Assembly (NCBI RefSeq): GCF_900167395.1
Contig: NZ_FUWK01000021.1
Span: forward strand, 1 to 32,000
Direction: 5' to 3'
DNA from: Nitrosomonas europaea
GTDB lineage: Bacteria > Pseudomonadota > Gammaproteobacteria > Burkholderiales > Nitrosomonadaceae
Length of the DNA: 32,000 bases
Part shown: piece after piece, positions 1-30,597 of the stretch
Layout of the letters: each line of letters starts with the position of its first letter
How positions within the stretch are numbered: the stretch's first letter is position 1
The notes under the pieces: generated by a model
Told to the model about the DNA's origin: nothing
Databases searched by the model: none
The model's input: the letters and a program-made list of their open reading frames with translations, nothing else
Program-made: the position numbers and the translations under genes

Positions 1-1630
1 ATCGGTCAACCCAGACAGATGACAGTGGTTCGTTTCCGAAAGATGCTCCCCAGTCTGGCTCCGGTAAATTCTTGAGTTCATCCAGTGAAAGGCTTGTGCC
101 AGATCGGGAAACAGGGCCGTTACCACGCACAAAGTAATCATAAAGAGTAGAAGAATAGCCAAGCGTCAATTTGTGGTCGACAGCAAAGGTTGAGAAGCGA
201 GTATCCAGGTAAATATATCCTCCATAATTTTCATGCTTTTCCCAGGGTGAGTTTGATATTCTGACGGGAATAAAGGTCCTGTCCACCTGCTGATTTAAAG
301 ATATTTGATTGACTCTCATCCGGGTATCCTGATAGAAAAAAGCACTTCTGAGCGTAAAATACTTACTGGGATCCCAGCGCAGGCTGGTATAGGCTTTATG
401 GCTTTCTATATCATTAGAAGTCCATTTGGGAGAGTAGCGTTTACTGGTATCGATAGAGATTCTTTCCGTCATATAATAAAATGGTTGTATCGCCTCTTTG
501 CTGTAATCGTTATAGGTATATTTGATATCCACATAGAGGGTATCGGTAAGGTGGCCATCCAGCACAATGTTGGCCACTTTCTGGTTGACTGGTTCACCGA
601 TAGCGGTATCTCCGCCCTGATAGAGCAGATTGGCCCGGTAACCGAAGCGGCCTCGTTCATCAAATTTTCCGCTGATATCAGCATGGCCATAAAACTGGGT
701 GCCGCCGTAATTACCGAATGTCAGCCTTCTGAGTGGAACATTGGTCGGGCTTTTGGTGACATAATTTATCGCCCCCCCTACTCTTCCACCGCCATAGAGA
801 AAACCTGAAGTTCCGCTGAGAATTTCAACCCGATCGATTTCGATTACTGACACAGCAGAACCATTTACGCCAGCCATAGGTATACCATCATAAATAGGAT
901 TAAGTGTTGGAAAACCCCGTATGGTGACATGAGGTGTACCAGTAAAATTTTGGATCATTGGTTCCTGAGTCAGGGGATTCATTTTGAAGATCTGCCCCAT
1001 ATTCTGAGCGTTGACATTCTCGATCAGGTCTGAAGGAACGATACTCATCGAATAGGGCGTATCACGCAAACTACGTTCTCCCCAAAGACCAATACCGCTG
1101 ATATTACTAACCCGATAACCTTCTTCTGCTGTGCCTTGTTTCAGTGAAGCTGTGCTGACTGTCAATGGTGGCAACGTTACCGGTCCACCCGCGGCTGCTA
1201 TCCGGTGCAATGAATAACCACCATTACCTGCCTCCACCAGTTCATAACCACTGCCGGCCAGCAAGCGTGAAAATCCTGCACGGACGGTGTAGCGGCCTTG
1301 CAATCCTTTTCTGCTCAGTCCCGACAGCATTTGTGGATCGAAGGATAGCGGCACACCAGATGCAGCGGCGAATTGCGCCAGTGCATCGCCGAGCTGGCTG
1401 GCAGGAATGGCATAGTCCCGTTGAGCTGTGTTATCGAGGGCTTCAGCAGCCATGACAGAATTCGGTATGACTACTGCACCAGTGAGACTGGCCAGGATGC
1501 AAGTGATCATAAATGCAAGTGCATTGGTTTTGAGAATCGATAGGATGGTGCGGCAGAAATGAATGAGGGAAGAGAATGCAAACCCTGCAGTGCAGGCTGA
1601 TTGCCCGAGGTGGAAACGCCTGAAGACCAT
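1..1630 (-). CDS. TonB-dependent siderophore receptor/transducer with N-terminal STN signalling domain (paralog 1). The C-terminal end runs off the window start.
   Basis: Absent from the ORF track because no stop codon lies in the window. Hand translation of the minus strand from ATG 1630..1628 stays open to base 1 in one frame. It gives MVFRRFHLGQ...LTGAVVIPNSVMA/AEA (signal-like), then the STN-like DYAIPASQLGDALAQFAAASGVPLSFDP...GGYSLHR. The plug and barrel are then colinear with the 820-aa receptor at 6193..8655 (GIGLWGERSLRDTPYSMSIVPSDLIEN, WEKHENYGGYIYLDTRFSTFAVDHKLTLGYSS). Confidence 0.85.
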   Translation of the reverse strand, partial: MVFRRFHLGQSACTAGFAFSSLIHFCRTILSILKTNALAFMITCILASLTGAVVIPNSVMAAEALDNTAQRDYAIPASQLGDALAQFAAASGVPLSFDPQMLSGLSRKGLQGRYTVRAGFSRLLAGSGYELVEAGNGGYSLHRIAAAGGPVTLPPLTVSTASLKQGTAEEGYRVSNISGIGLWGERSLRDTPYSMSIVPSDLIENVNAQNMGQIFKMNPLTQEPMIQNFTGTPHVTIRGFPTLNPIYDGIPMAGVNGSAVSVIEIDRVEILSGTSGFLYGGGRVGGAINYVTKSPTNVPLRRLTFGNYGGTQFYGHADISGKFDERGRFGYRANLLYQGGDTAIGEPVNQKVANIVLDGHLTDTLYVDIKYTYNDYSKEAIQPFYYMTERISIDTSKRYSPKWTSNDIESHKAYTSLRWDPSKYFTLRSAFFYQDTRMRVNQISLNQQVDRTFIPVRISNSPWEKHENYGGYIYLDTRFSTFAVDHKLTLGYSSTLYDYFVRGNGPVSRSGTSLSLDELKNLPEPDWGASFGNEPLSSVWVDR

Positions 1631-1775
1631 AATTCGTGACCCTTTCGTTAGTGTTGATCAAGTAGTTGAAGCGCGTTCAAAACACGCTTTCACCTGATAC
1701 ACCGGATGAACACGAAAAAGGTATCAGCCGAATCGCAGATTTTTTGCGGTTGAAGTATATGCGGCCTGTATCCCC

Positions 1776-2207
1776 TTATTTGAGGTATGAGGTACTCCAG
1801 GGATTAACCAGATCGATCCCGCAATCGACAAAATCCTTGAGGTTACGTGTAGCCAGGCTGGCACCCTTGGATTTAGCCATAGCAGCAATCATGGCATCGA
1901 ACTGACTGATCGGCTTACCGACGGCCTTACGGGATGCTGCAATTTTGGCGTAGGTATCGGCAGCCGTGCTATCGAAATTCAGAACATGTCCGGCCAGATC
2001 TTGATCGAAAATGCTCTGAATGGCATCCAGCAGAGCTGTCTGACGTTGGCCATCAGGTAGTAGACGCACACCGTAGAACAGTTCAGCTCGTGTAACCGTA
2101 GTAGTGAATAGCACTGACCGTGGCTGGGCCGCCAGCCATACCAGTACCTGTGTATCTGGTACAGGGCGCAAAATCTCGGAAAGTACATTGGTATCCAGAA
2201 CGATCAT
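1776..2207 (-). CDS. vapC: PIN-domain toxin, VapC/FitB family
   Basis: 143-aa ORF starting MIVLDTNVLSE (PIN acidic residue), with internal FDAMIAAMA and TRNLKDF motifs typical of VapC. It overlaps the upstream antitoxin gene by 4 nt (ATGA). Confidence 0.9.
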   Translation of the reverse strand: MIVLDTNVLSEILRPVPDTQVLVWLAAQPRSVLFTTTVTRAELFYGVRLLPDGQRQTALLDAIQSIFDQDLAGHVLNFDSTAADTYAKIAASRKAVGKPISQFDAMIAAMAKSKGASLATRNLKDFVDCGIDLVNPWSTSYLK

Positions 2208-2452
2208 GCTCCCGGCTCCAAAGGATCACGAATAGCTTCCCGTTCAGGCAGATTCAGCTCGATCCCGCCCAATGGCTCTATACGTGAACGAATTACTTCC
2301 ACCAGCGAGACAGTCTGCACTGGTTCAGCAGATAACGCTGTACGCAAAATATCCTGTACTTCATCTTCCATGGAACGTCCATGCATAGCAGCACGCACAC
2401 GCAGCCGGGCCTTGAGTTGCTCATCGATGTTGCGAATAGTCATAGTCGCCAT
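2204..2452 (-). CDS. vapB: Ribbon-helix-helix (Arc/FitA-type) VapB antitoxin
   Basis: 82-aa ORF MATMTIRNIDEQLKARLRVRAAMHGRSMEDEVQDILRTAL, typical of FitA/Arc-type antitoxins. AGGAG lies upstream of the ATG (plus-strand ctcct at 2459..2463). It is translationally coupled to vapC. Confidence 0.8.
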   Translation of the reverse strand: MATMTIRNIDEQLKARLRVRAAMHGRSMEDEVQDILRTALSAEPVQTVSLVEVIRSRIEPLGGIELNLPEREAIRDPLEPGA

Positions 2453-2513
2453 ATCAATCTCCTGTTAATCAATGGCTTGACGGTCATTAGCTGGTGTTAA
2501 AACAACCAACCAT

Positions 2514-2530
2514 TGTACATGCATCGTACA
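2514..2530. promoter_or_regulatory. Candidate operator palindrome in the vapBC promoter region
   Basis: TGTAC-ATGCATC-GTACA dyad about 60 nt upstream of the vapB start, in the divergent spacer between the two antitoxin genes. Confidence 0.3.
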
Positions 2531-2558
2531 TCAGAAATCCTTGTCTGCTTTCCGGGAA

Positions 2559-2585
2559 ATCAACGAACCCGCACCGTAATTCACC
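2559..2585 (-). pseudogene. Short remnant of a fecR 3' terminus (last about 8 codons plus stop)
   Basis: atcaacgaacccgcaccgtaattcacc matches atcaacgagcctgcaccgtaatccacc at the end of the intact fecR (4409..4435) at 24/27 positions by hand, in the same orientation. The stop codon lies at 2560..2562. Confidence 0.45.
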
Positions 2586-2656
2586 TGAAGATAATGCGAT
2601 TACCGCACGCCACCAGTCAGGAGATCCGGAGCGAATGAATTCATCATCGGCACATT

Positions 2657-2674
2657 TGTAGTAACATAACTACA
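2657..2674. promoter_or_regulatory. Candidate operator for the Phd-type antitoxin
   Basis: Perfect inverted repeat TGTAGT-AACATA-ACTACA, 24 nt upstream of the ATG at 2698. Confidence 0.4.
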
Positions 2675-2697
2675 TTAACTGTTTGTGGAGGTATGCC

Positions 2698-2955
2698 ATG
2701 GCTATTACAACGCTTTCCAGCCGGGAACTCAATCAGGATATCGGACGGGCCAAGCGCGCTGCCCGCAACGGCCCGGTCATCATCACCGACCGGGGTAAGC
2801 CCGTGCATGTGCTGCTGTCTTACGACGAGTACCAGCGCATCATCGGCCAGCAGGAAAACATCGTCGATCAGCTCGGCCTGCCATCGGGCATCGAAGATGT
2901 GGAAGTGGAGTTCCCCCGCTCGCGCGAACTGGCACGGCCTGCGGACTTCACCTGA
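2698..2955 (+). CDS. Phd/YefM-type antitoxin, partner of a PIN toxin
   Basis: MAITTLSSRELNQDIGRAKRAARNGPVIITDRGKPVHVLLSYDEYQRI is a typical Phd/YefM N-terminal domain. GGAGG at 2687..2691 lies 6 nt before ATG 2698; the track start at 2683 is a TTG and less likely. The stop overlaps the ATG of the downstream vapC (TGATG). Confidence 0.85.
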   Translation: MAITTLSSRELNQDIGRAKRAARNGPVIITDRGKPVHVLLSYDEYQRIIGQQENIVDQLGLPSGIEDVEVEFPRSRELARPADFT

Positions 2956-3404
2956 TGCTCCTGCTCGATACCAACGTCATTTCTGAGCTGCTCAAAGTCC
3001 GTGCTGGAAAGGCCGATCCGCACGTGACAACATGGGGCCGGACAGTGCCCGGTGCGAGTCTCTACGTTTCGGTCATCACCGTGCAGGAATTGGAGATCGG
3101 TACCTTGTAGGTCGAACGCCGTGACCCGGCCCAAGGCATTTTGCTTCGCACCTGGCTGGAGGAACATGTACTGTCGAGCTTCGCTGATCGAATCTTGCCG
3201 GTCGATACAGTCGTAGCACGCCGCAGCGCCGCGCTCCACGTACCCAACCCGCGCCCATACCGGGACAGCCTGATCGCCGCCACCGCGCTGGTATATGGCA
3301 TGACTCTGATTACTCGCAACGTAGCTGATTTCGAACCGATGGGTGTCACATTGCTCAACCCATGGACGCCATGCTGGCCGCGAATCAGCGGGCTTGTACC
3401 GTAA
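2955..3404 (+). pseudogene. vapC: vapC PIN-domain toxin gene interrupted by an in-frame TAG
   Basis: From ATG 2955 the frame reads MLLLDTNVISELLKVRAGKADPHVTTWGRTVPGASLYVSVITVQELEIGTL, then TAG at 3108..3110. It continues in the same frame as VERRDPAQGILLRTWLEEHVLSSFADRILPVDTVVARRSAALHVPNPRPYRDSLIAATALVYGMTLITRNVADFEPMGVTLLNPW. Only the distal part appears in the track (3141..3404). Confidence 0.8.
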
Positions 3405-3622
3405 TCCACCGGGAAATGGTACGACTGATGTGTATCGGCAAGGTCGTTTCCAGCAAACTCAGGCTGGCGGGTATGTCAGTCACCGGGAAAGCACCGGAGA
3501 CGGCCAGACTGGCAACAGAAGGATCGCAACGCAGAACACCACGGTAATAGCGGTTCAGTTCGGCGATCAGCTCACCGAGATGCATATCACGAGCCAGCAG
3601 CATGCCATGCTCCCACAGCGTA
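3378..3622 (-). pseudogene. Duplicated 3' fragment of fecR (C-terminal about 72 codons plus stop)
   Basis: Track ORF 3385..3603 (MLLARDMHLGELIAELNRYYRGVLRCDPSVASLAVSGAFPVTDIPASLSLLETTLPIHISRTISRWITVQAR) is colinear with the C-terminus of the intact FecR at 4410..5378. Nucleotide homology runs from about 3378 to 3622 against about 4404 to 4648. There is no N-terminal part. Confidence 0.85.
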
Positions 3623-3633
3623 GTGTCTTAGAT

Positions 3634-3963
3634 TTAGTACGCTAATTGTTCCAGGGTGATACCCATCGCCGCCGCGGCTTTCTCAAGCGTTGCCTTGCGC
3701 GGACGCTTGGCAGCCTCAATCTGTGCATAGCCTGCTTGCGTGATCTCCATGCGTTTAGCCATTTCTTCCTGGGTCAGCATCAGGTATTCACGCCAGGCTT
3801 GCAGCATACTCATTCCATTGATAGCTTTACTGACGACAGCGTGTGGCGCACCATCTTTAGGCACGTATACTTGGGAATGCACAAAATCAGCGTAGGGAAT
3901 AACGACAAAGGCAGGCCGTCCATCTACATCATTGATAGTTTGATAGTTAGTAAGTGGTCTCAT
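3634..3963 (-). CDS. HTH (XRE-type) antitoxin, in a HigA-like position downstream of its toxin
   Basis: MRPLTNYQTINDVDGRPAFVVIPYADF..., followed by a helix-turn-helix segment LTQEEMAKRMEITQAGYAQIEAAKRPRKATLEKAAAAMGITLEQL. The ATG at 3963 overlaps the 3' end of the toxin gene; the longer track ORF start (4017) lies inside the toxin gene. Confidence 0.75.
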   Translation of the reverse strand: MRPLTNYQTINDVDGRPAFVVIPYADFVHSQVYVPKDGAPHAVVSKAINGMSMLQAWREYLMLTQEEMAKRMEITQAGYAQIEAAKRPRKATLEKAAAAMGITLEQLAY

Positions 3964-4204
3964 CGCGCTTTTTAACTTCCTGAATATTAATGATATGGAT
4001 TTCTCCATCGAAATCAAAGAAAACTCTATAGTCCCCCGCTCGCAAACGGTAGGGATACCGGTGATTTGTCAGTTTCTTGATACTGTTACAATCAGGAAAT
4101 ACTGACAATTTTTCTTCAACAGTATCCCGGATAACTTGCGCCGTTTGCCTTGGCAATTTCAGCACCTGCTTAATCGCTTTTGTTTTCCAGATGATTCTGT
4201 TCAT
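3947..4204 (-). CDS. RelE/ParE-superfamily toxin, with toxin-first (HigB-like) gene order
   Basis: 85-aa ORF with YRLRAGDYRVFFDFDGEIHIINIQEVKKRDETTY, the characteristic RelE/ParE C-terminal core. It sits immediately upstream of an HTH antitoxin. Confidence 0.8.
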   Translation of the reverse strand: MNRIIWKTKAIKQVLKLPRQTAQVIRDTVEEKLSVFPDCNSIKKLTNHRYPYRLRAGDYRVFFDFDGEIHIINIQEVKKRDETTY

Positions 4205-4210
4205 CTGCTT

Positions 4211-4238
4211 ATTATAAGAATAATATAAGCAATATCAA
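4211..4238 (-). promoter_or_regulatory. Sigma70-like promoter of the relE/HTH module, nearly leaderless
   Basis: On the minus strand: TTGATA (4238..4233), a 16-nt spacer, TATAAT (4216..4211), then only 6 nt to ATG 4204. The surrounding TATAAG repeats may be operator half-sites. Confidence 0.45.
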
Positions 4239-4320
4239 TATAGATATAAGAATTGACCCGTTCCGAAAACTATGCCTTGGCGGTCTGCATTTGCCAGCTT
4301 TGCATGGCTAACCTCCAAAC

Positions 4321-4347
4321 TATAAAAGTCAGACTAGATAAGTCTGA
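4321..4347 (-). terminator. Rho-independent terminator candidate downstream of fecR (pair 1)
   Basis: Minus strand TCAGACT-TATCT-AGTCTGA (7-bp perfect stem, 4347..4329) followed by CTTTTATAGTTT. Confidence 0.5.
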
Positions 4348-4409
4348 GTTCTATCCAAGAGCGATGTCCATGTCCATACGGGCATGAATGCCGACCCCCA
4401 ACCAGCGGA

Positions 4410-5378
4410 TCAACGAGCCTGCACCGTAATCCACCAGGAAGTGGTGCTGCTGATGCGTATCGGCAGAGTCGTTTCCAGCAGCGCCAGACTGGCGGGTATG
4501 TCAGTCACCGGGAAAGCACCGGAGATGGCCAGACTGGCAACAGAGGGATCGCAACGCAGAACACCACGGTGATAGCGGTTCAGTTCGGCGATCAGCTCAC
4601 CGAGATGCATGTCACGAGCCAGCAGCATGCCATGCTCCCACAGCGTGGTACTGGCTTCCACGGGTCGTACGGGCTGCATGTCGAGTCCGGTAAAGGTCAT
4701 CTGCTCACCTGCACGCAGAACAGTTGTTTGAATGGATACAGCCGGATGAACTTCGACAGCCCCCTCAAGCACAGCGACCTGAGTGCGGTCATCGAAATGG
4801 CGCACGGTGAAGCGCGTACCCAGTGCGCGCAAGCTGCCATGAGCGGTCTGCACGATGAAGGGGCGCGATACAGGAGACGGATCACGCCCGGTAGTCACAA
4901 GGATCTCTCCAGCCAGTAATATAAGACGCCGTTCAGCAGTGGTAAAAGCGACATTCGCTGCACTGGTAGTATTGAGCACCAGATGCGTGCCATCATTCAG
5001 ATCGATGAGTTTCTGTTCACCGGTGGCGGTACGCAGATCAGCCACCCATTCCTGCCAGGGGCTGTGTCGCCAGGTGATCCAGGCAGCAGGCATGGCAAGT
5101 GCAAGTAAGCCCAGGCGCAACATCTGCCGACGGCCAGGATTGCCCAGATGCGAAAAGGTATCATGACCCAGTTTTGGTGGTACCTGATCAAAAGTGCTCA
5201 GCATATTTTCAGCACGTCGCCAGGCGGCTTCATGAGCAGGGTTGCGTTCACGCCAATGTGCCAGAGCCATCCGATCGCGCTCCGTCGCTTCGCCGGACTG
5301 GAGCAGTACCAGCCAATCGGCTGCTTCCAGCAGGATAGCTGGATCGATATCGGGCTCGGGGGAATGGAGCACTGTCAT
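4410..5378 (-). CDS. fecR: FecR-type anti-sigma factor / transmembrane sensor (pair 1)
   Basis: 322-aa ORF. The N-terminus has the anti-sigma motif AADWLVLLQSGEATERDRMALAHWRERNPAHEAAW, followed by one TM-like segment and a FecR/DUF4880-DUF4974-like periplasmic part. It starts 7 nt after the fecI stop. Confidence 0.9.
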   Translation of the reverse strand: MTVLHSPEPDIDPAILLEAADWLVLLQSGEATERDRMALAHWRERNPAHEAAWRRAENMLSTFDQVPPKLGHDTFSHLGNPGRRQMLRLGLLALAMPAAWITWRHSPWQEWVADLRTATGEQKLIDLNDGTHLVLNTTSAANVAFTTAERRLILLAGEILVTTGRDPSPVSRPFIVQTAHGSLRALGTRFTVRHFDDRTQVAVLEGAVEVHPAVSIQTTVLRAGEQMTFTGLDMQPVRPVEASTTLWEHGMLLARDMHLGELIAELNRYHRGVLRCDPSVASLAISGAFPVTDIPASLALLETTLPIRISSTTSWWITVQAR

Positions 5379-5385
5379 GAATGAA

Positions 5386-5916
5386 TCAATCCAGCATCAG
5401 GCAAGCGACAAAGGCTGTGCGCATGTGTCGCTTGATCGTAATGAGTGAAAAACCGGTTTGATCAGCGATCTGCCGGTAAGTCAGCCCGTCGAGCTGGGCC
5501 AGCAGGAAAATATCCCGTGTACGTACCGGCAAACCGCGCAACATGGTTTCGATGCGGCACAGCGCTTCCAGGATCAGCAGTCGTGTTTCAGGCGAAGGGA
5601 TTTCTGTCTCTGGCAGGTGGGCAAGTGCTTCCAGGTAAGCACGCTCTACATCCTGTCGCCGCCAGTGGTCGATGACCAGACCCTTGGCAATGTGCGTCAG
5701 CAACGCACGCGGTTCCTCACCCAAATGTACCGGCATCCTTTGTGAAGCCATGACACGCAGAAAAGTATCGTGCGCCAGATCGGCTGCATCACAGGCATTG
5801 CCGAGTTTGCAGCGCAGCCAGCCATACAACCAGCCGTGATGGTCGGTATACAGAACATGGATTCGGTGTGCTGCAAGGTCAGTGGCCGGCACAGCGCCCT
5901 CTTCGTCATCGGTCAT
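5386..5916 (-). CDS. fecI: FecI-type ECF sigma factor (pair 1)
   Basis: The ORF contains LYTDHHGWLYGWLRCKLGNACDAADLAHDTFLRV (region 2) and LDGLTYRQIADQTGFSLITIKRHM (region 4 HTH). The track start 5934 is a TTG. I prefer ATG 5916 (MTDDEE...) because it parallels MTIP/MTIQ in the two paralogs and lies 25 nt from the Fur-like dyad. ATG 5922 is also possible. Confidence 0.85.
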   Translation of the reverse strand: MTDDEEGAVPATDLAAHRIHVLYTDHHGWLYGWLRCKLGNACDAADLAHDTFLRVMASQRMPVHLGEEPRALLTHIAKGLVIDHWRRQDVERAYLEALAHLPETEIPSPETRLLILEALCRIETMLRGLPVRTRDIFLLAQLDGLTYRQIADQTGFSLITIKRHMRTAFVACLMLD

Positions 5917-5940
5917 GCACATGTGCGAACACAAAAATAA

Positions 5941-5959
5941 AATGAGAACGATTCTTATT
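5941..5959. promoter_or_regulatory. Fur-box-like dyad upstream of fecI (pair 1)
   Basis: AATGAGAA-CGA-TTCTTATT is an AT-rich dyad resembling the GATAATGA(T/G)AATCATTATC Fur consensus. A similar dyad stands before fecI pair 2. Confidence 0.45.
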
Positions 5960-6152
5960 TTATAAGGTAAGGTGCCCGACTTGCAAGACTGGTTTTATAT
6001 ATGACCAGACACCCAGTCAGGGCAGCAGACTCGCAAACTTTGCTGATCTGAGGGAACGAATACTGATAGCACAGACAATCGAGGAAATGTTTGATGCGTG
6101 AGTAGTTCGGGAAATGACAGGAGTTTCTGCCGGATTTTGCAGGAAGAAGTCC

Positions 6153-6176
6153 TCCGGGCTCTATTCTGAGCCCGGA
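6153..6176 (-). terminator. Conserved stem-loop just 3' of receptor paralog 2 (terminator candidate without a U-tract)
   Basis: TCCGGGCTC-tattct-GAGCCCGGA, a 9-bp perfect stem 17 nt after the stop. The same hairpin follows paralog 3 (30598..30621). Confidence 0.35.
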
Positions 6177-6192
6177 ATATCAAGCTAAAACG

Positions 6193-8655
6193 TTAAAACA
6201 TCGTACTGACAGAAAACGCAACAGTCCTCGGTACGCCTAAATAATTAGCATCTTGCCAGTAGTTTTTACCAGTCAGATTGATGACATTCAGACGTACTAT
6301 TAGTGACTTATCCAGTACACGAGTTGCATATCGTGCTCCGATATCATACAAGGTATAGCTGGGTATCTTGTCGGTATTGGCCGCATTGCCATATCTCTCG
6401 CTGGTATAGTAGATACCACCGGTCAAGCTCAATCCCGTAATCCAAGGCAGAGCATATTCCGCATAAATTTTGCCCATTCTGGAAGCAGCATTGACTGGTT
6501 TCTTTCCTTCCAGAGCAGGATCATTGGCTTTCTCTACGCTGATATCCATCAGGGTGCCGCCTCCCATGATAGTCAGATTGTCGGTTACTTTTCCGGTCAG
6601 GATCAATTCCACCCCGTTATGTACTTGCAAACCATCCTGAACGTAAGTGGGGATAGGCATAGCTTGATTTGAAAACTGATTGGCTTTCTCGATTCGGAAC
6701 AGCGCAGTACTCAATAATAAATTAGGATTGACATCGTATTTCAGACCCACTTCATATTGTTTACTGACGAGTGGTGGGAATACTTCCCCAAAATTAGTAT
6801 AGGTATTACCTACTCTCGTTCCTCTTTCAAGTGCTTCCATATAAGAGACATAGGTGGTGACATCTTTAATCGGTTTATACAGCACCGAGACGGAGGGGGT
6901 CAGCGCAGATTTTTCATATTTAATACCATCGCCATAAAAACCGGATGCTTTATTCATCGTAGTAGCATAGTTGAATCCGATCATCGCAGACCATTGATCA
7001 TTGAAAGTAATATCATCTCCAATCAAAACATTATTATATTGATCAATCCAGGGAGATGATACGGTTCCCTTTCCGAAAGATTCTCCCCAATCCGGCTCAG
7101 ATAAGTTTTTAACTTCATTTAACGAGAGGCTTGTACCAGACCGAAGAACAAAACCATTACCACGCAAAAAGTATTCATAATAAGTAGAGGAATAACCTAA
7201 GGTTAGTTTATGGTCGACAGCAAACGTTGAAAATCGCGTATCCAGGTAGATATAACCCCCATAATTTTCATGCTTTTCCCACGGGGCGTTTAACATTCTA
7301 GGAATAAAGGTCCTGTTCGCTTGCTCATTTAAATATATTTGGTTGGTTCTCATATTAGTATGTTGATAGAAGAAAGCACTTCTAAGGGTGAAATACTTAC
7401 TGGGATCCCAGCGCAGGCTGGTGTAAGCTTTGTGACTTTCCAAGTCATTAGATGCCCATTTGGGAGAATAGCGTTTACTGGTATCGACCCCAGTTCTTTC
7501 TATCACACTATTAAATGTTGGTTGTGTTGCTTCTTTGCTGTAGTCGTTATAGGTATATTTGACATCCGCGTAGAGGGTATCGGTAAGATGACCATCCAGC
7601 ACGATGTTGGCGACTTTCTGTTTTACGGGCTCACCTATAGCGGTATCTCCTCCTTGGTAGAGCAGATTGGCTCGATAACCGAAGCGGCCCCGATCATCGA
7701 ATTTTCCACTGATATCAGCATGGCCATAAAACTGAGTACCACCGTAGTTACCAAACGTCAGCCTTCTGAGCGGGACACTGGTTGGGCTTTTGGTCACGTA
7801 ATTTATTGCCCCGCCTACTCTGCCGCCACCATAGAGAAAGCCTGAGGTTCCACCGAGAATTTCGACTCGATCGATCTCGATGACGGATACGGCAGAGCCG
7901 TTCCCAAGAGCAAGAGGTATGCCATCATAGACCGGATTTGTTGATTGAAATCCGCGCATGACGACCATAGGTATACCGGTAAAATTCTGAATAGGTGGTT
8001 CCTGAGTCAAGGGATTCATTTTGAAGATCTGCCCCATATTCTGGGCATTGATGTTTTCAATCAAATCAGAAGGGACAATACTCATTGAATAGGGCGTATC
8101 TCGCAAGCTGCGTTCATCCCATAAGCCAATTCCGCTGACATTACTGACCAAATACCCCTCTTCTGCTGCGCCTTGTTTCAGGGAATCTGCTTTTACGGTC
8201 AGCGTGGGCAACACTGCTTTTCCATCAGTAGTCAGATTCCCGGTAGCCGGTACTTTATGCAAGGTATACCCTCCGCCCGGTTGCCTGATGACCTCTATAC
8301 TGTTACCGGCCAGCAGCAACATGAGTCCTGCTGAAATATCATGGCGGCCATTCAACCCTCTGGTCACTTTGTTGCTGATCAGTGCAGGATCATAGGTCAG
8401 ATTGACGCCTGCAGTACGGGCGAAGCGATCCAGTGCGCTATCCAGCGGGCCAGCAGGAATATCAAACATTCTGGTATTGGTTTCAACTGGCCCGGCTGCG
8501 TTGTTCTGTGCCTGTGCAGGCTGTATAAAACAGATCCCACTCAACACAAGAAAACCCGGTATCACGCTGCAGAGTACTGCAGTACGCAACAACCGGATCA
8601 AACTGGAGATGGAGATAAAACAATGAGTGACGATACAAGGATGAAAGATAGTCAT
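6193..8655 (-). CDS. TonB-dependent siderophore receptor/transducer with STN signalling domain (paralog 2)
   Basis: 820-aa ORF. It has a signal-like N-terminus ending QPAQA/QNN and the STN-like MFDIPAGPLDSALDRFARTAGVNLTYDP...GGYTLHK. A plug follows (RVEILGGTSGFLYGGGRVGGAINYVTK), then a long beta-barrel ending in the aromatic terminal F (VAFSVSTMF). Confidence 0.95.
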   Translation of the reverse strand: MTIFHPCIVTHCFISISSLIRLLRTAVLCSVIPGFLVLSGICFIQPAQAQNNAAGPVETNTRMFDIPAGPLDSALDRFARTAGVNLTYDPALISNKVTRGLNGRHDISAGLMLLLAGNSIEVIRQPGGGYTLHKVPATGNLTTDGKAVLPTLTVKADSLKQGAAEEGYLVSNVSGIGLWDERSLRDTPYSMSIVPSDLIENINAQNMGQIFKMNPLTQEPPIQNFTGIPMVVMRGFQSTNPVYDGIPLALGNGSAVSVIEIDRVEILGGTSGFLYGGGRVGGAINYVTKSPTSVPLRRLTFGNYGGTQFYGHADISGKFDDRGRFGYRANLLYQGGDTAIGEPVKQKVANIVLDGHLTDTLYADVKYTYNDYSKEATQPTFNSVIERTGVDTSKRYSPKWASNDLESHKAYTSLRWDPSKYFTLRSAFFYQHTNMRTNQIYLNEQANRTFIPRMLNAPWEKHENYGGYIYLDTRFSTFAVDHKLTLGYSSTYYEYFLRGNGFVLRSGTSLSLNEVKNLSEPDWGESFGKGTVSSPWIDQYNNVLIGDDITFNDQWSAMIGFNYATTMNKASGFYGDGIKYEKSALTPSVSVLYKPIKDVTTYVSYMEALERGTRVGNTYTNFGEVFPPLVSKQYEVGLKYDVNPNLLLSTALFRIEKANQFSNQAMPIPTYVQDGLQVHNGVELILTGKVTDNLTIMGGGTLMDISVEKANDPALEGKKPVNAASRMGKIYAEYALPWITGLSLTGGIYYTSERYGNAANTDKIPSYTLYDIGARYATRVLDKSLIVRLNVINLTGKNYWQDANYLGVPRTVAFSVSTMF

Positions 8656-8714
8656 ATTATTTTCGGTCAGATAGGTTAATGATCAACAAACAAGGCTCCC
8701 ACCTGATAGGTCGA

Positions 8715-8737
8715 TCGAGAATCGAAATCCCCTCACC
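8715..8737 (-). promoter_or_regulatory. Candidate ECF (FecI-type) promoter, GGTGA-N14-TCGA
   Basis: On the minus strand: GGTGA (8737..8733), a 14-nt T-rich spacer, TCGA (8718..8715), 60 nt before ATG 8655. The same GTGA-N14-TCGA arrangement lies 52-53 nt before two other STN-type receptor genes. Confidence 0.3.
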
Positions 8738-8802
8738 TTTTCCGAAAAATTTTTCTGACGCTTCTCCTGTTTTTATTCAACGAATAAATTTACGAACCAT
8801 TT

Positions 8803-8944
8803 AGGAACCTCTGCAAAACTATCTGCATTGCCATTTCTGCGTTAAAAGTCGGCTCAGAATACTCATTTATTACGTATAAACTCCGCTTCTTCGCCGACTT
8901 TTGCCTTGAACTGACTGCCTCGCTAACGTTTTTCAGAGGTTCCC
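8803..8944. mobile_element. About 140-bp MITE-like non-coding element, copy A
   Basis: Terminal inverted repeats: left end (T)TAGGAACCTCTGCAAAAC, right end GTTTTTCAGAGGTTCCCTTA. There is no ORF. It is about 85-90% identical by eye to 10356..10497, in the same orientation. Confidence 0.6.
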
Positions 8945-8951
8945 TTACTTA

Positions 8952-8999
8952 TCGCCAGGACAGCGATGCAGTTCGTACCTCACCGTATCCTGTTGCACT
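8952..8999. repeat. 48-bp hairpin-containing repeat, copy A
   Basis: tcgccaggacagcgatgcagttcgtacctcaccgtatcctgttgcact is near-identical to 10872..10919 (direct repeat, 1920 bp apart). The core also recurs inverted at 30393..30419. Confidence 0.65.
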
Positions 9000-9021
9000 A
9001 TAAAACGGAAAAAATCGTATG

Positions 9022-9293
9022 CTAAGGCTGCACTGAGGCAGGAATCCAGCGATAAAGCGTAGGAATGGACACGCCAAAGTTCTTGGCCACGTCCCTGGGC
9101 GGAACGCCGTTGGCCAGCAGCTTCATTGTCGACTCGATCTTACTGTCGGTCATCTTGGGTTTGCGGCCTCCCCTGCGACGTGCCACTCACCTTGTCCTCG
9201 AAGATCTTTTTACATCCGGCCCTGGTCAAGGCTTCGCGTTGCAGCTCCAGGTTCTGATCTTGCGTCGAGATTCACGTATAAGCCAATCAACAT
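9022..9293 (-). pseudogene. Decayed serine recombinase (resolvase/invertase): N-terminal stub fused to the C-terminal HTH
   Basis: The minus strand reads ATG TTG ATT GGC T-TAT ACG TGA ATC TCG ACG CAA GAT CAG, that is MLIG(Y)T*ISTQDQNLELQREALTRAGCKKIFEDKVSGTSQG. This carries the resolvase catalytic-Ser motif, with a 1-nt insertion and a TGA. The frame then switches to GGRKPKMTDSKIESTMKLLANGVPPRDVAKNFGVSIPTLYRWIPASVQP*, a Hin/resolvase-type HTH. The central catalytic domain is missing. Confidence 0.75.
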
Positions 9294-9664
9294 GGCTTGT
9301 CTCTTGCTTCATTGTCGGCGTCCTGGCGCACGGCGGGCAATTGCTTGAGCAACTCCGGCAGTGCTGCCTGCACGGTGTCCCACACCACATCGAGGTTGAT
9401 GTCGAAGTAGCCGTGGGCGATGCGGTTGCGCATGCCGCGCATATTGCGCCACGGCACTTGAGCATGTGCCTGGGCAAACTCGGCATAGCCATCCATCACC
9501 TTCGTGACGGCTTCGCCGATGATGATGAGGCTCATGATGACGGCCTGCTGAGTTTGCTTGTTCTCAAGGAAATCCTCTTTGGCCAGGCCCTCTACGAAGC
9601 TGCACGCGTCGGTTGCGGCCTGCTGTATGTGGTCGAGGTAATCGAGCAGGCGGCTTTCGCTCAT
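9287..9664 (-). CDS. hepT: HEPN-domain (DUF86) toxin HepT
   Basis: 125-aa ORF with the R-x4-H HEPN motif (MRNRIAHGYF). It overlaps the upstream nucleotidyltransferase gene by 4 nt. Confidence 0.9.
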   Translation of the reverse strand: MSESRLLDYLDHIQQAATDACSFVEGLAKEDFLENKQTQQAVIMSLIIIGEAVTKVMDGYAEFAQAHAQVPWRNMRGMRNRIAHGYFDINLDVVWDTVQAALPELLKQLPAVRQDADNEARDKPC

Positions 9665-9957
9665 ATCGGTCGCGCCTCCGCGAGTACCTTGGCCCGGAAC
9701 TTTGGCGGCAGGTCGCCGGGCGTCAGCAAATCAACGTGGAGGCCGAGCAGTGATTCCAGCTCGACTTGCAGACCACCCAGATCGAACAGTGTCGCACCAG
9801 GCAGCGCATCGACCAGCAGATCGAGGTCGCTGCCATCGTGGTCGGTGCCATGCAGCACCGAACCAAAGACACGCGGGTTCGTGGTGCGGAAGCGGCCTAC
9901 CGCTTCACGCACTGCGCTTCGTTTCATGTCAAGCACAACAGACGGTCTCATGGGCAT
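9661..9957 (-). CDS. mntA: Minimal nucleotidyltransferase antitoxin MntA
   Basis: 98-aa ORF with FGSVLHGTDHDGSDLDLLVD (the GS-x-D-x-D NTase motif). It pairs with the DUF86 gene. The region is visibly GC-rich compared with its surroundings. Confidence 0.9.
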   Translation of the reverse strand: MPMRPSVVLDMKRSAVREAVGRFRTTNPRVFGSVLHGTDHDGSDLDLLVDALPGATLFDLGGLQVELESLLGLHVDLLTPGDLPPKFRAKVLAEARPI

Positions 9958-10036
9958 CCTTTTTTATCAAAACTCGTTGAGATGGTATGCAATCAAGAAT
10001 AGAGCTTCAAGAACTATTTTCGAGAATCACAATACC

Positions 10037-10354
10037 TTAATATCCGTGAAATAAAAAATCGAGTGCACTGGTAATCTCGGGTTGCATATCTCGTAACGAC
10101 AGCACGGGCATTGTAAGTAGTCGCCGGGGGATAGCCCCCATTTTTGGAGTTTCCAGCAGAAAATCCTGGCCTTTGATCGTTACAACCGGAGTCAGCCTGC
10201 CGGGTAATTTAACTTTGGGGAAGTGCTCAAGGCTGCGCAATGGAATGACCATGCAGCTATCCAGCACATCAAGCAGATCGCTCTGGACATCCAGCAGATA
10301 AGGTGTCGTAGCGGCGTGACTACCCGGGTTAACATAAACATCGAAACGTGCCAC
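10037..10354 (-). CDS. ccdB: CcdB-family gyrase-poison toxin
   Basis: 105-aa ORF (M)ARFDVYVNPGSHAATTPYLLDVQSDLLDVLDSCMVIPL...ALDFLFHGY, colinear with CcdB. It has a GTG start at 10354, with GGAGG (plus-strand cctcc 10362..10366) 7 nt upstream. That GGAGG lies inside the MITE-like element. Confidence 0.85.
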   Translation of the reverse strand: MARFDVYVNPGSHAATTPYLLDVQSDLLDVLDSCMVIPLRSLEHFPKVKLPGRLTPVVTIKGQDFLLETPKMGAIPRRLLTMPVLSLRDMQPEITSALDFLFHGY

Positions 10355-10355
10355 A

Positions 10356-10497
10356 AGGGAGCCTCCAGAAAACTACCTGCGTTGTCATTTCTGCGTCAAA
10401 AATCGGCTCAAAATGCTCATTTATTACGTATAAACTCCGCTTTCTTGCCGATTTTTGCCTTGAACTGATTGCCTCGCTAATATTTTTTAGAGGTTCC
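10356..10497. mobile_element. About 140-bp MITE-like element, copy B, inserted between ccdA and ccdB
   Basis: Homologous along its full length to 8803..8944. It fills exactly the gap between the ccdA stop (10498..10500) and the ccdB start (10354). Confidence 0.65.
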
Positions 10498-10761
10498 TTA
10501 GAAACTTCTCCACTCGTCCAGTGGCAGATTCTCAGCTTCGATAGTGGCATTGTAGGCAGTAATAAAATCCGCATGTTCCTCACGCCAGCGGCGCTCTTGC
10601 TCATGACGCACCACTTCACGCAGGTAAGTATCGCAGACCTGAGAAATATTGATATCCAGTTGCCTGGCAGCGTCCAGTACATCAGCACTCAAGCTCAGAT
10701 TGATTGCACGTTTGCCAGGTCGGCCAGATTGGGTACGACGGACAGACTGTATCGTTGGCAT
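10498..10761 (-). CDS. ccdA: CcdA-family antitoxin
   Basis: MPTIQSVRRTQSGRPGKRAINLSLSADVLDAARQLDINISQVCDTYLREVVRHEQERRWREEHADFITAYNATIEAENLPLDEWRSF resembles CcdA (NIS...RRxxxxxW...). GGAGA lies 5 nt before ATG 10761. The longer track start (10779) lies within the operator-like palindrome. Confidence 0.8.
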   Translation of the reverse strand: MPTIQSVRRTQSGRPGKRAINLSLSADVLDAARQLDINISQVCDTYLREVVRHEQERRWREEHADFITAYNATIEAENLPLDEWRSF

Positions 10762-10771
10762 TGATGTCTCC

Positions 10772-10793
10772 ATGCGCATAATAATATGTGCAT
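10772..10793. promoter_or_regulatory. Candidate CcdA operator palindrome
   Basis: ATGCGCATAATAATATGTGCAT is a near-perfect 22-bp palindrome (2 mismatched pairs) directly upstream of the ccdA RBS. Confidence 0.4.
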
Positions 10794-10871
10794 AGCCTAA
10801 CCCGTATTATTCATTGTGTCCATGGTTTGCAACAAAACGATCAAGCCACTGGATTGCTTCAGCGTACCATT

Positions 10872-10919
10872 TCGCAAGGACAGCGATGCAGTTCGTACCT
10901 CACCGTATCCTAACGCACT
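10872..10919. repeat. 48-bp hairpin-containing repeat, copy B
   Basis: tcgcaaggacagcgatgcagttcgtacctcaccgtatcctaacgcact is a direct repeat of 8952..8999. It lies 11 nt downstream of the fecR (pair 2) stop. Confidence 0.65.
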
Positions 10920-10929
10920 CCTATCTCTG

Positions 10930-11973
10930 TTAACGATATAAGCTCTTCGGGCCCACTATCACCCAGAAACGTGTGCGATACATCACGCTGACCGGCTGCG
11001 TCTGTGCAAGAAATTGCAGTGCCTTATCCGTATCTTTCACATGAAAAATACCCGATATCGGCAGATCGGCCACACGTTCGTCACAAACGATGTAACCCGG
11101 ACGATAGCGTGACAGCTCAGCTACCAGATCGGCCAGCCGGATATTTTTACCGGCAATGACACCACTGACCCAGCCATCTTCCTCGAAATACCGGTCTGCT
11201 TCAGGCAGGATGCTGCTTCCGGTCAGTCGGCGGCTCTCACCCGCCTGCACGATGGCTGACGAACCACCGGCAGATGGATGCAACTCCACCGCGCCTTCCT
11301 GCACACTGACGCGGGCATGCTGTTCGTCCAGCCGTACGACAAAACGGGTACCGAGTGCCTGCAGTTCACCGAATGGCGTACGTACCCGGAACGGACGCTT
11401 CCTGCCGATTCGGGCCGATACTTCGCTATCGGGGCCGGTAGTGATATGCATCTCACCTCGCTGCAAGACGATGAGCCGCTGTGCTTCCGTCAGATCAAAG
11501 CTGACCGCACTGTCGGTATTGAGCACGACAACCGTACCATCGGTCAGATGGAGTACACGCTGTTCACCCGTGACGGTACTGGCATCCGCCAGCAGACGCT
11601 GCCAGGGAGTATGCTCACGCACAGTCCAGCCGGTTGCGATGGTAATACCCGCCAGAGACAGCAGTTTCATCGCATTTCTGCGGCTCAGTTTGCGTGACTG
11701 GCGTCTGCTGTCCACTTCCTGCAGTGTATCGAATGCCAGTCTGGAAGGAAGACTCCTGCAGTCATTCCTGAGATTATTCAGAGAATCTACCCGTTGCCAG
11801 GCAAGCCTATGCAACGGATCGGCGTGCAGCCACTGGTCGAAGGATTGACGGGTTTCAGGTGTGGGATCGTTATAATCGAGTCTGATCGACCAGGTGATGG
11901 CAGCCTCGATGATGTTTTCAGGAAGAGAGGCAGTTTGTGGCAGATTTTCCTGATCGACGGACGGGTGTGTCAT
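10930..11973 (-). CDS. fecR: FecR-type anti-sigma factor (pair 2)
   Basis: The N-terminus carries AITWSIRLDYNDPTPETRQSFDQWLHADPLHRLAWQR (anti-sigma domain), followed by one TM-like segment and a FecR periplasmic domain. I prefer ATG 11973 (MTHPSV...), 4 nt after the fecI stop, over the track start 12024, which overlaps fecI by 47 nt. Confidence 0.88.
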   Translation of the reverse strand: MTHPSVDQENLPQTASLPENIIEAAITWSIRLDYNDPTPETRQSFDQWLHADPLHRLAWQRVDSLNNLRNDCRSLPSRLAFDTLQEVDSRRQSRKLSRRNAMKLLSLAGITIATGWTVREHTPWQRLLADASTVTGEQRVLHLTDGTVVVLNTDSAVSFDLTEAQRLIVLQRGEMHITTGPDSEVSARIGRKRPFRVRTPFGELQALGTRFVVRLDEQHARVSVQEGAVELHPSAGGSSAIVQAGESRRLTGSSILPEADRYFEEDGWVSGVIAGKNIRLADLVAELSRYRPGYIVCDERVADLPISGIFHVKDTDKALQFLAQTQPVSVMYRTRFWVIVGPKSLYR

Positions 11974-11977
11974 CCGG

Positions 11978-12496
11978 TCATGCTTCGAAATGCAATGCGT
12001 AACACTGGCGCAGTGCCTTGGCAATATAGCGCTCGACAGTCGCCACGGATACGTCCAGATGTTTTGCGATCTGCGAACAGGTCAGCCCATCGATCTGTGC
12101 CAGTAGAAAGGCGGTGCGTACTGCCGGTTTGAGTGAATCGAGCACCCGGTCTATCTCGACCAGCGTTTCCAGAAAGATCAGGCGGCTTTCAGGGGCAGGC
12201 GTTTCGGGCTCAGGCAGAACTGCCAGTATCTCCAGCCAGACCTGCTCCAGCTCGCGCCGACGCCAGTGATCGACGACCAGGCCACGGGCGATGGAAGACA
12301 GATATGCCCGTGGTTCGTGTATCTGGGAGGGTTGCCGGCGAGTAAGTACCCGCATGAATACATCCTGGGCAATATCTGCTGCATCGAAAGTATTACCCAG
12401 CCTGCGATACAGCCATTTCTGCAACCAGCCATGATGATTATTGTACAGATCATGCGCTTGCTGCCACGTTACCAGCTTGACAACCGGGATGGTCAT
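11978..12496 (-). CDS. fecI: FecI-type ECF sigma factor (pair 2)
   Basis: 172 aa starting MTIPVVKL, with LYNNHHGWLQKWLYRRLGNTFDAADIAQDVFMRV (region 2) and IDGLTCSQIAKHLDVSVATVERYI (region 4). Confidence 0.92.
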   Translation of the reverse strand: MTIPVVKLVTWQQAHDLYNNHHGWLQKWLYRRLGNTFDAADIAQDVFMRVLTRRQPSQIHEPRAYLSSIARGLVVDHWRRRELEQVWLEILAVLPEPETPAPESRLIFLETLVEIDRVLDSLKPAVRTAFLLAQIDGLTCSQIAKHLDVSVATVERYIAKALRQCYALHFEA

Positions 12497-12522
12497 TTTC
12501 CGTCTTCCGATCAGATAATATT

Positions 12523-21440: not shown

Positions 21441-21499
21441 CTCTGACCAAGCCCTCCATGAGCCACATTACAGGCAAAATCATGATGATCGCAAGAAGC
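21441..21499. repeat. 59-bp intergenic repeat, copy X1
   Basis: ctctgaccaagccctccatgagccacattacaggcaaaatcatgatgatcgcaagaagc is about 85% identical by hand to 30330..30387, in the same orientation. Both copies lie downstream of a receptor gene. Confidence 0.6.
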
Positions 21500-30387: not shown

Positions 30388-30392
30388 ATAGC

Positions 30393-30583: not shown

Positions 30584-30597
30584 AGCGGTTAGGGTTC

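Follow-up and report, generated by a model that had tools for sequence, protein, structure and literature searches.

Toxin-antitoxin modules stacked between repeated fecR 3′ ends at a fecIR-receptor locus of Nitrosomonas europaea

In Nitrosomonas europaea ATCC 19718, the spacer between an intact fecR gene and the adjoining TonB-dependent receptor gene consists of stacked units, each starting with a fecR 3′ end, as the original prediction had proposed and as the alignments and Pfam layout support. The spacer is probably a high-turnover toxin-antitoxin (TA) islet, with exchange between lineages by fecR-anchored recombination and additive layers formed through illegitimate joins. Lineages would exchange cassette content by homologous recombination, with one anchor in fecR and the second in older cassettes or the receptor gene, and the usual outcome would be a clean cassette swap. 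At least twice, incoming DNA from a related lineage with its own fecR 3′ end and a cassette would have had its far end joined illegitimately inside the resident fecR, once ~245 nt and on an earlier occasion ~30 nt before the stop codon, and the resident fecR 3′ end with everything behind it would have been retained and shifted toward the receptor gene as a scar. One illegitimate join per layer is needed because homologous recombination alone leaves no duplicates. This would be the known process of sequential displacement, for which homology-facilitated illegitimate recombination (HFIR) has been proposed as the route, and we infer an HFIR-type join here.

We used the window, the 32,000-nt stretch of DNA analyzed here, as the reference allele and assigned gene content by Pfam (Table 1). 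An extracytoplasmic function (ECF) sigma factor gene is followed by a FecR-type anti-sigma gene, the arrangement of FecI/FecR/transducer cell-surface signaling, and a predicted STN-extended receptor gene adjoins the fecIR pair; the three genes are contiguous in the orthologues L015 and L016. Full-length receptor B, as found in L001, has Pfam STN/Plug/TonB_dep_Rec domains. By their Pfam domains, all three cassettes have type II TA organization, namely, ParE_toxin with HTH_3, PhdYeFM with PIN, and FitA-like RHH with PIN (for cassette 3, PF01850 at 3e-16 and PF22513 at 1e-19). Cassette 3 has 95-96% identity in L011 and L018, compared with ~84% for the genes around it. The relE/HTH module is preceded by a predicted near-consensus sigma-70 promoter (4238..4211, 11/12 in the promoter scan), and its HTH_3 antitoxin is called at 109 aa in public records. 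Cassette 1, of which the window keeps a leftover, is complete in L011 (Phd of 83 aa plus PIN), whose homology to the window reaches 4253; farther on, L011 4659-5023 matches window 2607-2242 at 95%. The cassette 2 vapC is a pseudogene in the window, with a CAG-to-TAG nonsense change at 3108 and the stop TGA changed to TGG at 3377, and encodes an intact 140-aa VapC in L028, L045, and L048. The algH remnant provides the final VapC codons and stop in other strains. An 18-nt exact match connects it in L017/L018 to L022, where the sequence continues into algH(1-61)-gshB, and the AlgH alignment extends through the residues of the remnant; this gshB-algH piece is locus content in another Nitrosomonas lineage. 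No Rfam family was detected in positions 1-12500 and no tRNA in the whole window.

Table 1. Features of the fecR-receptor locus in the reference allele (window coordinates)
Feature	Coordinates	Strand	Content or basis
Receptor B, TonB-dependent transducer (STN, Plug, barrel)	1..1619 (start approximate)	-	Translation; 5′ part only, rest beyond window edge
Conserved receptor-B upstream (promoter) block, CAAAAAAT..GCTGATACCTTTTTCGTGTTCATCCGGTGTATCAGGTGAAAGCG..	1620..1735	-	Alignment; common to insert-free orthologues
Cassette 3	1776..2558	-	PIN/VapC toxin 1776..2207; FitA-like RHH antitoxin 2204..2452; own upstream region 2453-2558
fragC, remnant of last ~30 nt of fecR including stop	2559..2589	-	25/30; 27-mer 24/27
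Short non-fecR flank	2590..2607	-	With fragC, segment common to window and L011; homology begins at 2607
Cassette 2, inverted relative to fecR	2683..3377	+	Phd antitoxin 2683..2955; PIN/VapC 2955..3377; Pfam
algH/yqgE remnant, ~20 nt (codons ~55-61)	3363..3384	+	Between vapC NPW codons and fragB stop
fragB, displaced fecR 3′ end	3385..3624	-	80 codons with stop, open frame; Pfam FecR_C; dN/dS
relE/HTH module, higBA-like order	3625..4252	-	RelE/ParE toxin 3947..4204; HTH_3 antitoxin 3634..4017; Pfam
phd′ upstream region and truncated phd′ start (ATG 4305, MQSWQMQTAKA*)	4253..4409	-	Leftover of cassette 1 (phd′-vapC′)
Intact fecR	4410..5378	-	DUF4880 + FecR (Pfam)
fecI-type ECF sigma factor	5386..5934	-	Pfam Sigma70_r2/r4_2

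The downstream repetition of the fecR end described originally was confirmed 2 nt from the stated position, as a direct repeat of 245 nt (3380-3624 versus 4405-4649) with 90.6% identity, 23 mismatches, and no gaps (BLAST E ~1e-94). Its intact copy consists of the last 240 nt of fecR (4410-4649) and 5 nt past the stop (4405-4409). The third, shorter copy was also recovered: positions 2559-2585 match 4409-4435 at 24 of 27 nt, and none of 100 dinucleotide-preserving shuffles of the 32-kb window gave a second 27-mer match at ≤3 mismatches. Counted back from the stop, fragC is identical at 25 of 30 nt, and in the alignment similarity is at background level past ~30 nt; no decayed fecR homology was found upstream of it (p ~0.35). 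All three copies lie on the minus strand and terminate in the fecR stop codon, which agrees with the orientation and gene layout described originally. An intact gene is thus accompanied by same-orientation 3′ fragments of itself. An alignment for a fourth remnant beside the receptor promoter scored no higher than shuffles (p ~0.15), and neither of the other two fecR genes in the window is accompanied by a displaced end. The fragC remnant occupies the equivalent position in the relatives L011, L017, and L018; it also occurs in L008, and the corresponding L037 and L048 alignments contain it too. The window, L017, and L022 share an identical fragB 5′ junction, so we attribute fragB to one event. 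We considered whether fragB is a maintained gene or a silent cassette for FecR C-terminal variation and dropped this reading, as fragB of L008 has indels relative to the intact copy and the protein sequence of the FecR C terminus is nearly invariant among alleles.

Comparison with other Nitrosomonas lineages established a series of alleles at this locus. L048 (closed chromosome CP054389.1), L018, and L037 have the order fecR, cassette 2, fragC, cassette 3, receptor B, with a single full fecR end and no relE/HTH; content that lies behind fragB in the window is therefore found directly behind intact fecR elsewhere. L011 has fecR, phd′-vapC′, fragC, and cassette 3; L014 has fecR, a new vapBC, a phd′ remnant, and an inverted phd; and L019 has fecR, an HTH-Fic gene, and the receptor gene. 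The uninterrupted spacer that had been asked about exists in the more distant orthologues L015 and L016 (67-70% identity), where 94-150 nt separate fecR from the receptor gene without an insert. Unit 1 (3625-4404) is a presence/absence polymorphism with limits exactly at the 245-nt repeat: it is missing from L018, L037, and L048, and relE/HTH is likewise missing from L011 and L014. L037 has flanks 99.4-100% identical to the window, and what it lacks between them is precisely 3625-4404 and a single repeat copy; both L018 and L037 come from metagenome contigs, and because the L037 scaffold contains an N run, the repeat may have collapsed in that assembly. Two points count against our model: the alleles examined did not include the arrangement fecR, cassette 3, receptor that it predicts as the source of fragC, and the relatives examined did not include a donor carrying the far end of the relE/HTH piece. 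Exact-protein look-ups of RelE, Phd, and FitA for the original cassette sources returned this locus only, neither plasmids nor E. coli genomes gave useful megablast hits to 1500-6000, and a scan of genome contigs with FecR yielded only three loci, one of them useful.

The exact coincidence of the unit 1 limits with the repeat, in L037 and likewise in L018 and L048, also suits Campbell-type integration, in which a circle with ~245 nt of fecR 3′ sequence plus relE/HTH entered by a single crossover in fecR, leaving the homology segment duplicated on both sides and able to loop out again. Exchange between the two repeat copies is indeed evident: over the 5′ 130 nt they reach 96% identity in the window, which is not the case in L017. 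We nonetheless regard this origin as unlikely. A circle of such exact content presupposes an earlier illegitimate event, fragC at only ~30 nt is too short for an efficient RecA crossover, and neither a circular form nor a replicon gene was seen. Moreover, an origin of the single-copy alleles by loop-out suits sequential displacement just as well. These alleles fit a preinsertion state and later loop-out between the repeats equally well, which makes the direction of each step a tentative inference.

The differences between the two 245-nt copies are mostly synonymous, which identifies the copies as diverged functional alleles rather than an in situ duplicate. Intact fecR and fragB of the window differ by 13.7 synonymous to 8.3 nonsynonymous changes (dN/dS 0.19), and the same pair in L017 by 11 to 2 (dN/dS 0.06, dS 0.20). 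Across the fecR-end copies dS was 0.20-0.26; orthologue pairs gave dN/dS values of 0.06-0.13 for comparison. These data weigh against the other origin put forward in the original prediction, a hot spot 3′ of fecR hit repeatedly with long target duplication, and equally against tandem duplication of a fecR end plus cassette followed by replacement of one cassette. Same-orientation direct repeats do flank the insert, and insertions in several lineages begin 0-4 nt past the stop, but the copies differ by 9.4% with dN/dS of 0.06-0.19, as do orthologues under purifying selection in different lineages. Between fecR and the receptor gene we found neither a transposase nor inverted repeats nor any short, identical target duplications, and we know of no transposition mechanism that makes 245-nt target duplications. 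We therefore consider duplication in place very improbable.

The fecR-end single-nucleotide polymorphisms (SNPs) are linked to the downstream cassette, and this linkage supports the fecR end as a homology arm. The variant CAAGCCCGCTGA accompanies cassette 2 or Fic, and CAGGCTCG(T/C)TGA followed by TCCG accompanies phd′; L019 and L011 are 97% identical over fecIR, yet the variant type changes in the last 14 nt. Patches left by recombination were also found. L017 and the window are ~0.5% diverged over fecI-relE/HTH and over cassettes 2-3, ~10% diverged in 3600-3200, and 10-25% diverged in receptor B. The sources of the fecR ends are alleles of the same locus in other Nitrosomonas lineages. Of the predicted import from other fecR loci by way of a fecR-end arm, the arm thus stands and the paralogous source does not: N. 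europaea has many fecIR-receptor sets, and the neighboring set in the window carries TA genes (ccdAB, MNT/HepT) at the same junction, a point that had been raised as a question, but ectopic recombination with paralogues of the same genome is scarcely credible given that the remaining two fecR genes of the window resemble this one only in short stretches, at 70-75% identity, and lack displaced ends, and that fragB groups with same-locus alleles from other lineages.

Approximately five independent junctions in several lineages lie within 0-4 nt of the fecR stop. In the two insert-free orthologues, the receptor promoter block begins 0-56 nt past this stop: in L016 the stop TGA is the TGA of GCTGATACC and the block abuts it, and in L015 the stop lies 56 nt upstream. 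Junctions would cluster at the stop because the conserved block starts right behind it and little else is permissive, which makes selection a plausible reason for the tight cluster. New content always starts beside a fecR stop, and the cassettes are compact (~630-930 nt), mostly with their own upstream region, and stacked in an array, features that could also point to site-specific capture, in which a recombinase supplied in trans would use the fecR terminus like an integron attI/attC, Xer/dif, or phage att site. This seems highly improbable to us. No integrase or recombinase gene was found among the Pfam hits at the locus, the sole trace being an HTH_7 fragment in the neighboring locus; no inverted repeats or attC-like structure surround the cassettes; fragment lengths of 245 and 30 nt are at odds with a fixed site; and the promoter block beside the stop accounts for the insert position. 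We accordingly dropped the idea that the fecR terminus holds an attC- or dif-like site, as the core is variable (CGTTGA, CGCTGA) and the next bases are TCCG, TTCG, TTTC, or GAGG.

Several known systems resemble the arrangement that sequential displacement would produce. Integrative elements such as e14 and phage 21 in icd and islands in tRNA genes bring a replacement 3′ end of the target gene, so that the target stays intact through the incoming diverged end while a fragment of the old end remains beyond the insert; they have an integrase and a defined att core, whereas the fecR locus has no recombinase or core and inserts of only ~0.8-1 kb. In integron arrays, too, small units are added on the promoter side, so that older cassettes move back, and TA modules are frequent cargo, but the fecR locus has no adjacent intI or attC and its boundaries are gene fragments of variable length. 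Stacking of orphaned 3′ ends is known from T6SS effector-immunity, Rhs, and CDI loci (Kirchberger et al. 2017, PMC5361080, citing Jackson 2009 and Poole 2011), for which this same process has been proposed. There, too, an intact gene is followed by same-orientation orphan 3′ ends, each with cargo that formerly followed the intact gene; the copies derive from other strains and not from duplication, the conserved upstream part serves as homology anchor while the far end is joined illegitimately, and whole arrays then spread by ordinary homologous recombination. In those loci the displaced end is a toxin domain and the cargo its cognate immunity gene, with an obvious benefit of retention. At the fecR locus, in contrast, an anti-sigma gene with no relation to the cargo serves as anchor, and the cargo consists of complete, self-contained TA modules and, in some alleles, also of a Fic gene or housekeeping fragments. 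Because FecR_C is unrelated to the TA genes by Pfam, displaced end and cargo do not form a functional pair, and the locus works like a displacement array without being a polymorphic-toxin locus.

Small, high-turnover chromosomal spots are reported to hold TA islets that spread through recombination at core genes on either side (Belot et al. 2026, PMC13617665), and N. europaea to carry TA islands (Makarova et al. 2009, PMC2701414). As in those islets, several unrelated type II pairs lie alone between two conserved genes without mobile-element genes, content varies between close relatives, toxins turn into pseudogenes, and recombination occurs at the flanking genes; nested partial copies of a flanking gene marking successive additions are not described in the excerpted text of either. 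Since islet spread (PMC13617665) and stacking with orphaned 3′ ends (PMC5361080) have both been described, the suggestion that this route of TA spread is new does not hold, and the fecR-receptor stack is a clear example of a process known from elsewhere rather than a novel type of system. A full-text literature search found no paper on TA genes at fecR-receptor junctions in Nitrosomonas.

The locus indicates that the displacement and stacking of polymorphic toxin loci (T6SS, Rhs, CDI) also shape ordinary TA islets, here with a regulatory gene unrelated to the cargo as anchor. The scars give a layer order, from the fitAB-type module nearest the receptor gene through phd-vapC to the phd′ slot, now relE/HTH, nearest fecR. 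A bolder and quite unlikely extension is that fecR-receptor junctions in Nitrosomonas are a recombinase-free platform for TA capture. New cassettes could only be added, because TA pairs are addictive and cells replacing them would be lost; the simplest route of addition, through a fecR homology arm, would leave a fecR-end scar, and the array would be a dated record of acquisition. On such a platform, TA expression might also come to lie downstream of the iron starvation-induced fecIR transcript and, if so, might link iron limitation to growth arrest. TA addiction may in this way favor addition over replacement, and strains that differ by exactly one unit offer a handle on whether it biases recombination toward addition. 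We note that the N. europaea genome is among the most TA-rich known. For annotation, the 72-aa open reading frame at 3385-3603 in public N. europaea records is the fecR fragment fragB, and the VapC tail of cassette 2 is borrowed from algH.

Read along the minus strand, the region from fecR to receptor B carries three fecR 3′ ends, each followed by a different toxin-antitoxin (TA) module, and Pfam assignments agreed with the gene content originally predicted for it. The FecR protein of 4410..5378 has an exact match in Nitrosomonas europaea ATCC 19718 (AL954747.1), a record with 99.99% identity to the window over 14 kb. In this strain the cassette-2 PIN toxin is a pseudogene, with a nonsense change at 3108 (CAG to TAG) and loss of the stop at 3377; other strains have the intact 140-aa form. 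The last VapC codons of cassette 2 are now supplied by a remnant of algH. Receptors A and B are ∼80% identical at the DNA level. The 32 kb contain three paralogous TonB-dependent receptor genes with 74-80% DNA identity (6149-7555 versus 30594-32000; 6-1175 versus 7043-8212) and three fecI-fecR pairs; scans for RNA genes gave no Rfam family within 1-12500 and no tRNA anywhere in the window.

Features of the fecR-receptor B region, in the order of a minus-strand reading
Feature	Position	Strand	Remarks
Receptor A	8655..6193	-	TonB-dependent receptor
fecI-type gene	5934..5386	-	ECF sigma gene
fecR	5378..4410	-	
Spacer, fecR to receptor B			2.8 kb
Unit 1	3625-4404		RelE/ParE toxin and HTH_3 antitoxin (Pfam), higBA-like order, with upstream region
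phd′ start codons	4305-4270		MQSWQMQTAKA*
Predicted promoter	4238..4211		near-consensus, upstream of relE/HTH (promoter scan)
fragB	3385..3624	-	displaced fecR 3′ end
algH/yqgE remnant	3363-3384		∼20 nt, between vapC and fragB
Cassette 2	2683..3377	+	inverted Phd-PIN pair (Pfam)
fragC	2559..2589	-	fecR-end remnant
Cassette 3	1776..2558	-	FitA-like RHH and PIN toxin (Pfam)
Receptor B	start ∼1619	-	second STN-type transducer

The repeated fecR ends of the original prediction were confirmed by alignment. Positions 3380-3624 and 4405-4649 form a direct repeat of 245 nt with 90.6% identity and no gaps (E ∼1e-94), and 2559-2585 matches the last 27 nt of fecR at 24/27 positions (27-mer GGTGRATTACRGTRCRRGYYCGYTGA; 25/30 for fragC when counted from the stop). 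No second match of equal quality to the 27-mer appeared in 100 shuffles of the window, and alignment detected no homology of the fragC region to fecR beyond ∼30 nt upstream. All three copies have the same orientation and end with a stop codon. The 80-codon frame of fragB is still open and still scores as FecR_C in Pfam; public records list this displaced C-terminus as a 72-aa protein-coding gene at 3385-3603.

We gathered alleles of the locus from other Nitrosomonas lineages by protein look-ups and scans (L-numbers denote these records); several are metagenome contigs, and L037 contains an N run. Uninterrupted fecR-receptor spacers, whose existence the original prediction had raised as a question, do occur: in L015 and L016, whose FecR orthologues are 67-70% identical, the receptor follows fecR directly after 94-150 nt. 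In the closed chromosome L048 (CP054389.1), the divergent metagenome contig L018, and L037, a contig 99-100% identical to the window, fecR is followed by cassette 2, fragC, cassette 3, and receptor B, with a single fecR end and without relE/HTH. ATCC 19718 (the window) and its relatives L017 and L022 carry in addition unit 1 and a second fecR end, and the 5′ junction of fragB is identical in all three. L011, a PE_soil1 MAG (FecR 90%), has a complete phd′-vapC′ (cassette 1) after fecR, then fragC and cassette 3. In L014 (FecR 88%), a different vapBC starts 4 nt past the stop and precedes a truncated phd′, an inverted phd, and receptor B, and L019, 97% identical to L011 in fecIR, has a 457-aa HTH-Fic gene followed by receptor B. 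The preserved phd′ start codons in the window indicate that an older phd′-vapC′ cassette was mostly replaced by relE/HTH.

In the metagenome contig L022 (1247-2284), the junction that bears the algH remnant in the window runs on from fragB into a truncated algH (codons 1-61) and gshB in place of cassette 2. An 18-nt exact match links the algH remnant of L017 and L018 to L022, and the AlgH alignment spans the encoded residues. As judged from these sequences, either a segment of housekeeping genes formerly lay in the spacer, or the L022 strain was rearranged. Further variants were also observed. In L034, L043, and L055 (ERZ795018 NODE_970), what is left of the upstream-locus sigma gene (77 aa) is fused to this fecR, of which the final 115 codons remain, with deletion of fecR-2, ccdAB, MNT/HepT, receptor A, and fecI. 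L048 has IS630-family insertions at 180-1592 and 4235-5180, one splitting fecI and one between cassette 3 and receptor B, and in ATCC 19718 receptor B is interrupted by an rve-type IS (L003).

Sequence variation in the last 15-80 nt of fecR tracks the downstream content: the end variant CAAGCCCGCTGA accompanies cassette 2 or Fic, and CAGGCTCG(T/C)TGA followed by TCCG accompanies phd′. L019, at 97% identity to L011 through fecIR, switches type within the last 14 nt of fecR. Together, the switch and the linkage of end variants to content show that crossovers occur inside fecR and that the terminus moves with its cassette. The mismatch profile of L017 against the window shows ∼99.5% identity from fecI to relE/HTH and again over cassettes 2 and 3, and ∼10% divergence at 3600-3200 (fragB and the 3′ half of vapC); L018 shows the same diverged patch. 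Lineages with ∼84% identity in the flanking genes share cassette 3 at 95-96% identity. Receptor B (window 1-1600) differs from the window by 10-25% in L017 and L018, where the TA islet is 98-99.5% identical, and by ∼5% in L048, with the break in divergence near the receptor B start. The receptor B gene itself seems to be subject either to exchange or to diversifying pressure.

Clean swaps, such as phd′-vapC′ (L011) for cassette 2 (L048), each between fecR and fragC, can be explained by homologous recombination within the conserved flanks alone, a swap route described for TA islets (PMC13617665). Stacking with a retained fecR end requires an illegitimate join for each layer, with the left crossover located within fecR and the incoming DNA joined at its right end to the resident fecR 5′ of its stop. 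Homology-facilitated illegitimate recombination of this kind is the model put forward to explain immunity arrays at T6SS loci as well as orphaned ends at Rhs and CDI loci (PMC5361080). Displacement predicts an allele with intact fecR placed directly before the content now behind fragB, as seen in L048 and L018, and an incoming cassette type directly behind fecR, as seen in L011. The direction of each displacement step is our inference, and TA addiction may favor addition over replacement. Campbell-type insertion of a circle with later loop-out would give the same product, but we consider it less likely; fragC, at ∼30 nt, is too short for this route.

The displacement model also predicts that the copies are diverged functional alleles, and this is what we found. 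Across the 79 shared codons, fragB in L017 differs from its intact counterpart by 11 synonymous and 2 non-synonymous changes (dN/dS 0.06, dS 0.20); the window pair has 13.7 to 8.3 (dN/dS 0.19), and functional fecR orthologue pairs range from 0.06 to 0.13. Because these ratios resemble those of orthologue pairs, most of the divergence accrued while each copy was part of a working fecR. With divergence of this kind, neither a target duplication nor slippage with subsequent decay can account for the copies, and the long target duplication at a fecR hot spot, one of the two explanations first put forward, is not supported. The window mismatches are polarized (96% identity over the first 130 nt, ∼84.5% over the last 110), whereas those of the L017 pair are not, which points to a later exchange between the repeat copies in the window. 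Import from paralogous fecR loci, the other route originally suggested, was not borne out, as the similarity of the window's other fecR genes to this one is confined to short stretches of 70-75% identity and they lack displaced ends. Transposition or site-specific capture was rejected, since the locus showed neither a transposase or integrase gene nor inverted repeats or a conserved core.

At five different junctions, new content starts 0-4 nt past the fecR stop (TGA|TCCG, TGA|TTCG, TGA|TTTC, TGA|GAGG, and TGA TCCG|AG). Alignment of upstream regions revealed a conserved block (1620-1735), ..GCTGATACCTTTTTCGTGTTCATCCGGTGTATCAGGTGAAAGCG.., upstream of receptor B and common to the insert-free orthologues; in L016 the TGA of this block doubles as the fecR stop, which in L015 lies 56 nt upstream. 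With the block at or near the stop, the permissive zone, in which insertion would spare both fecR and the putative receptor promoter, is probably very short.

TA islands are known in N. europaea, with 48 significantly clustered pairs (PMC2701414), and both high-turnover TA islets (PMC13617665) and displacement arrays (PMC5361080) have been described. The apparent novelty is that the two occur together at an anti-sigma gene, where scars record the order of layers. In the full texts searched, TA genes at fecR-receptor junctions in Nitrosomonas were not described.

At the neighboring locus, the spacer between fecR (12024..10930) and receptor A contains ccdA and ccdB together with an MNT/HepT pair and a resolvase fragment (HTH_7). 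Just upstream of receptor A, copies of two segments stand side by side: 8952-8999 matches the 48 nt just past the neighboring fecR stop (10872-10919, 92%), and 8804-8943 matches the unusual 140-nt ccdA-ccdB spacer (10358-10497, 86%). Together they resemble what erosion would leave of a second ccd cassette. Intergenic regions near fecIR and receptor genes contain short repeats of 27-52 nt with 88-93% identity (8965-8992, 10885-10911, and 30392-30419, inverted; 21448-21499 versus 30336-30387), possibly small repeat elements or regulatory boxes. A further TA-like gene by an iron receptor, which encodes a PaaA2-type antitoxin domain (ORF 29757-30236), adjoins another receptor gene (30638-31798).
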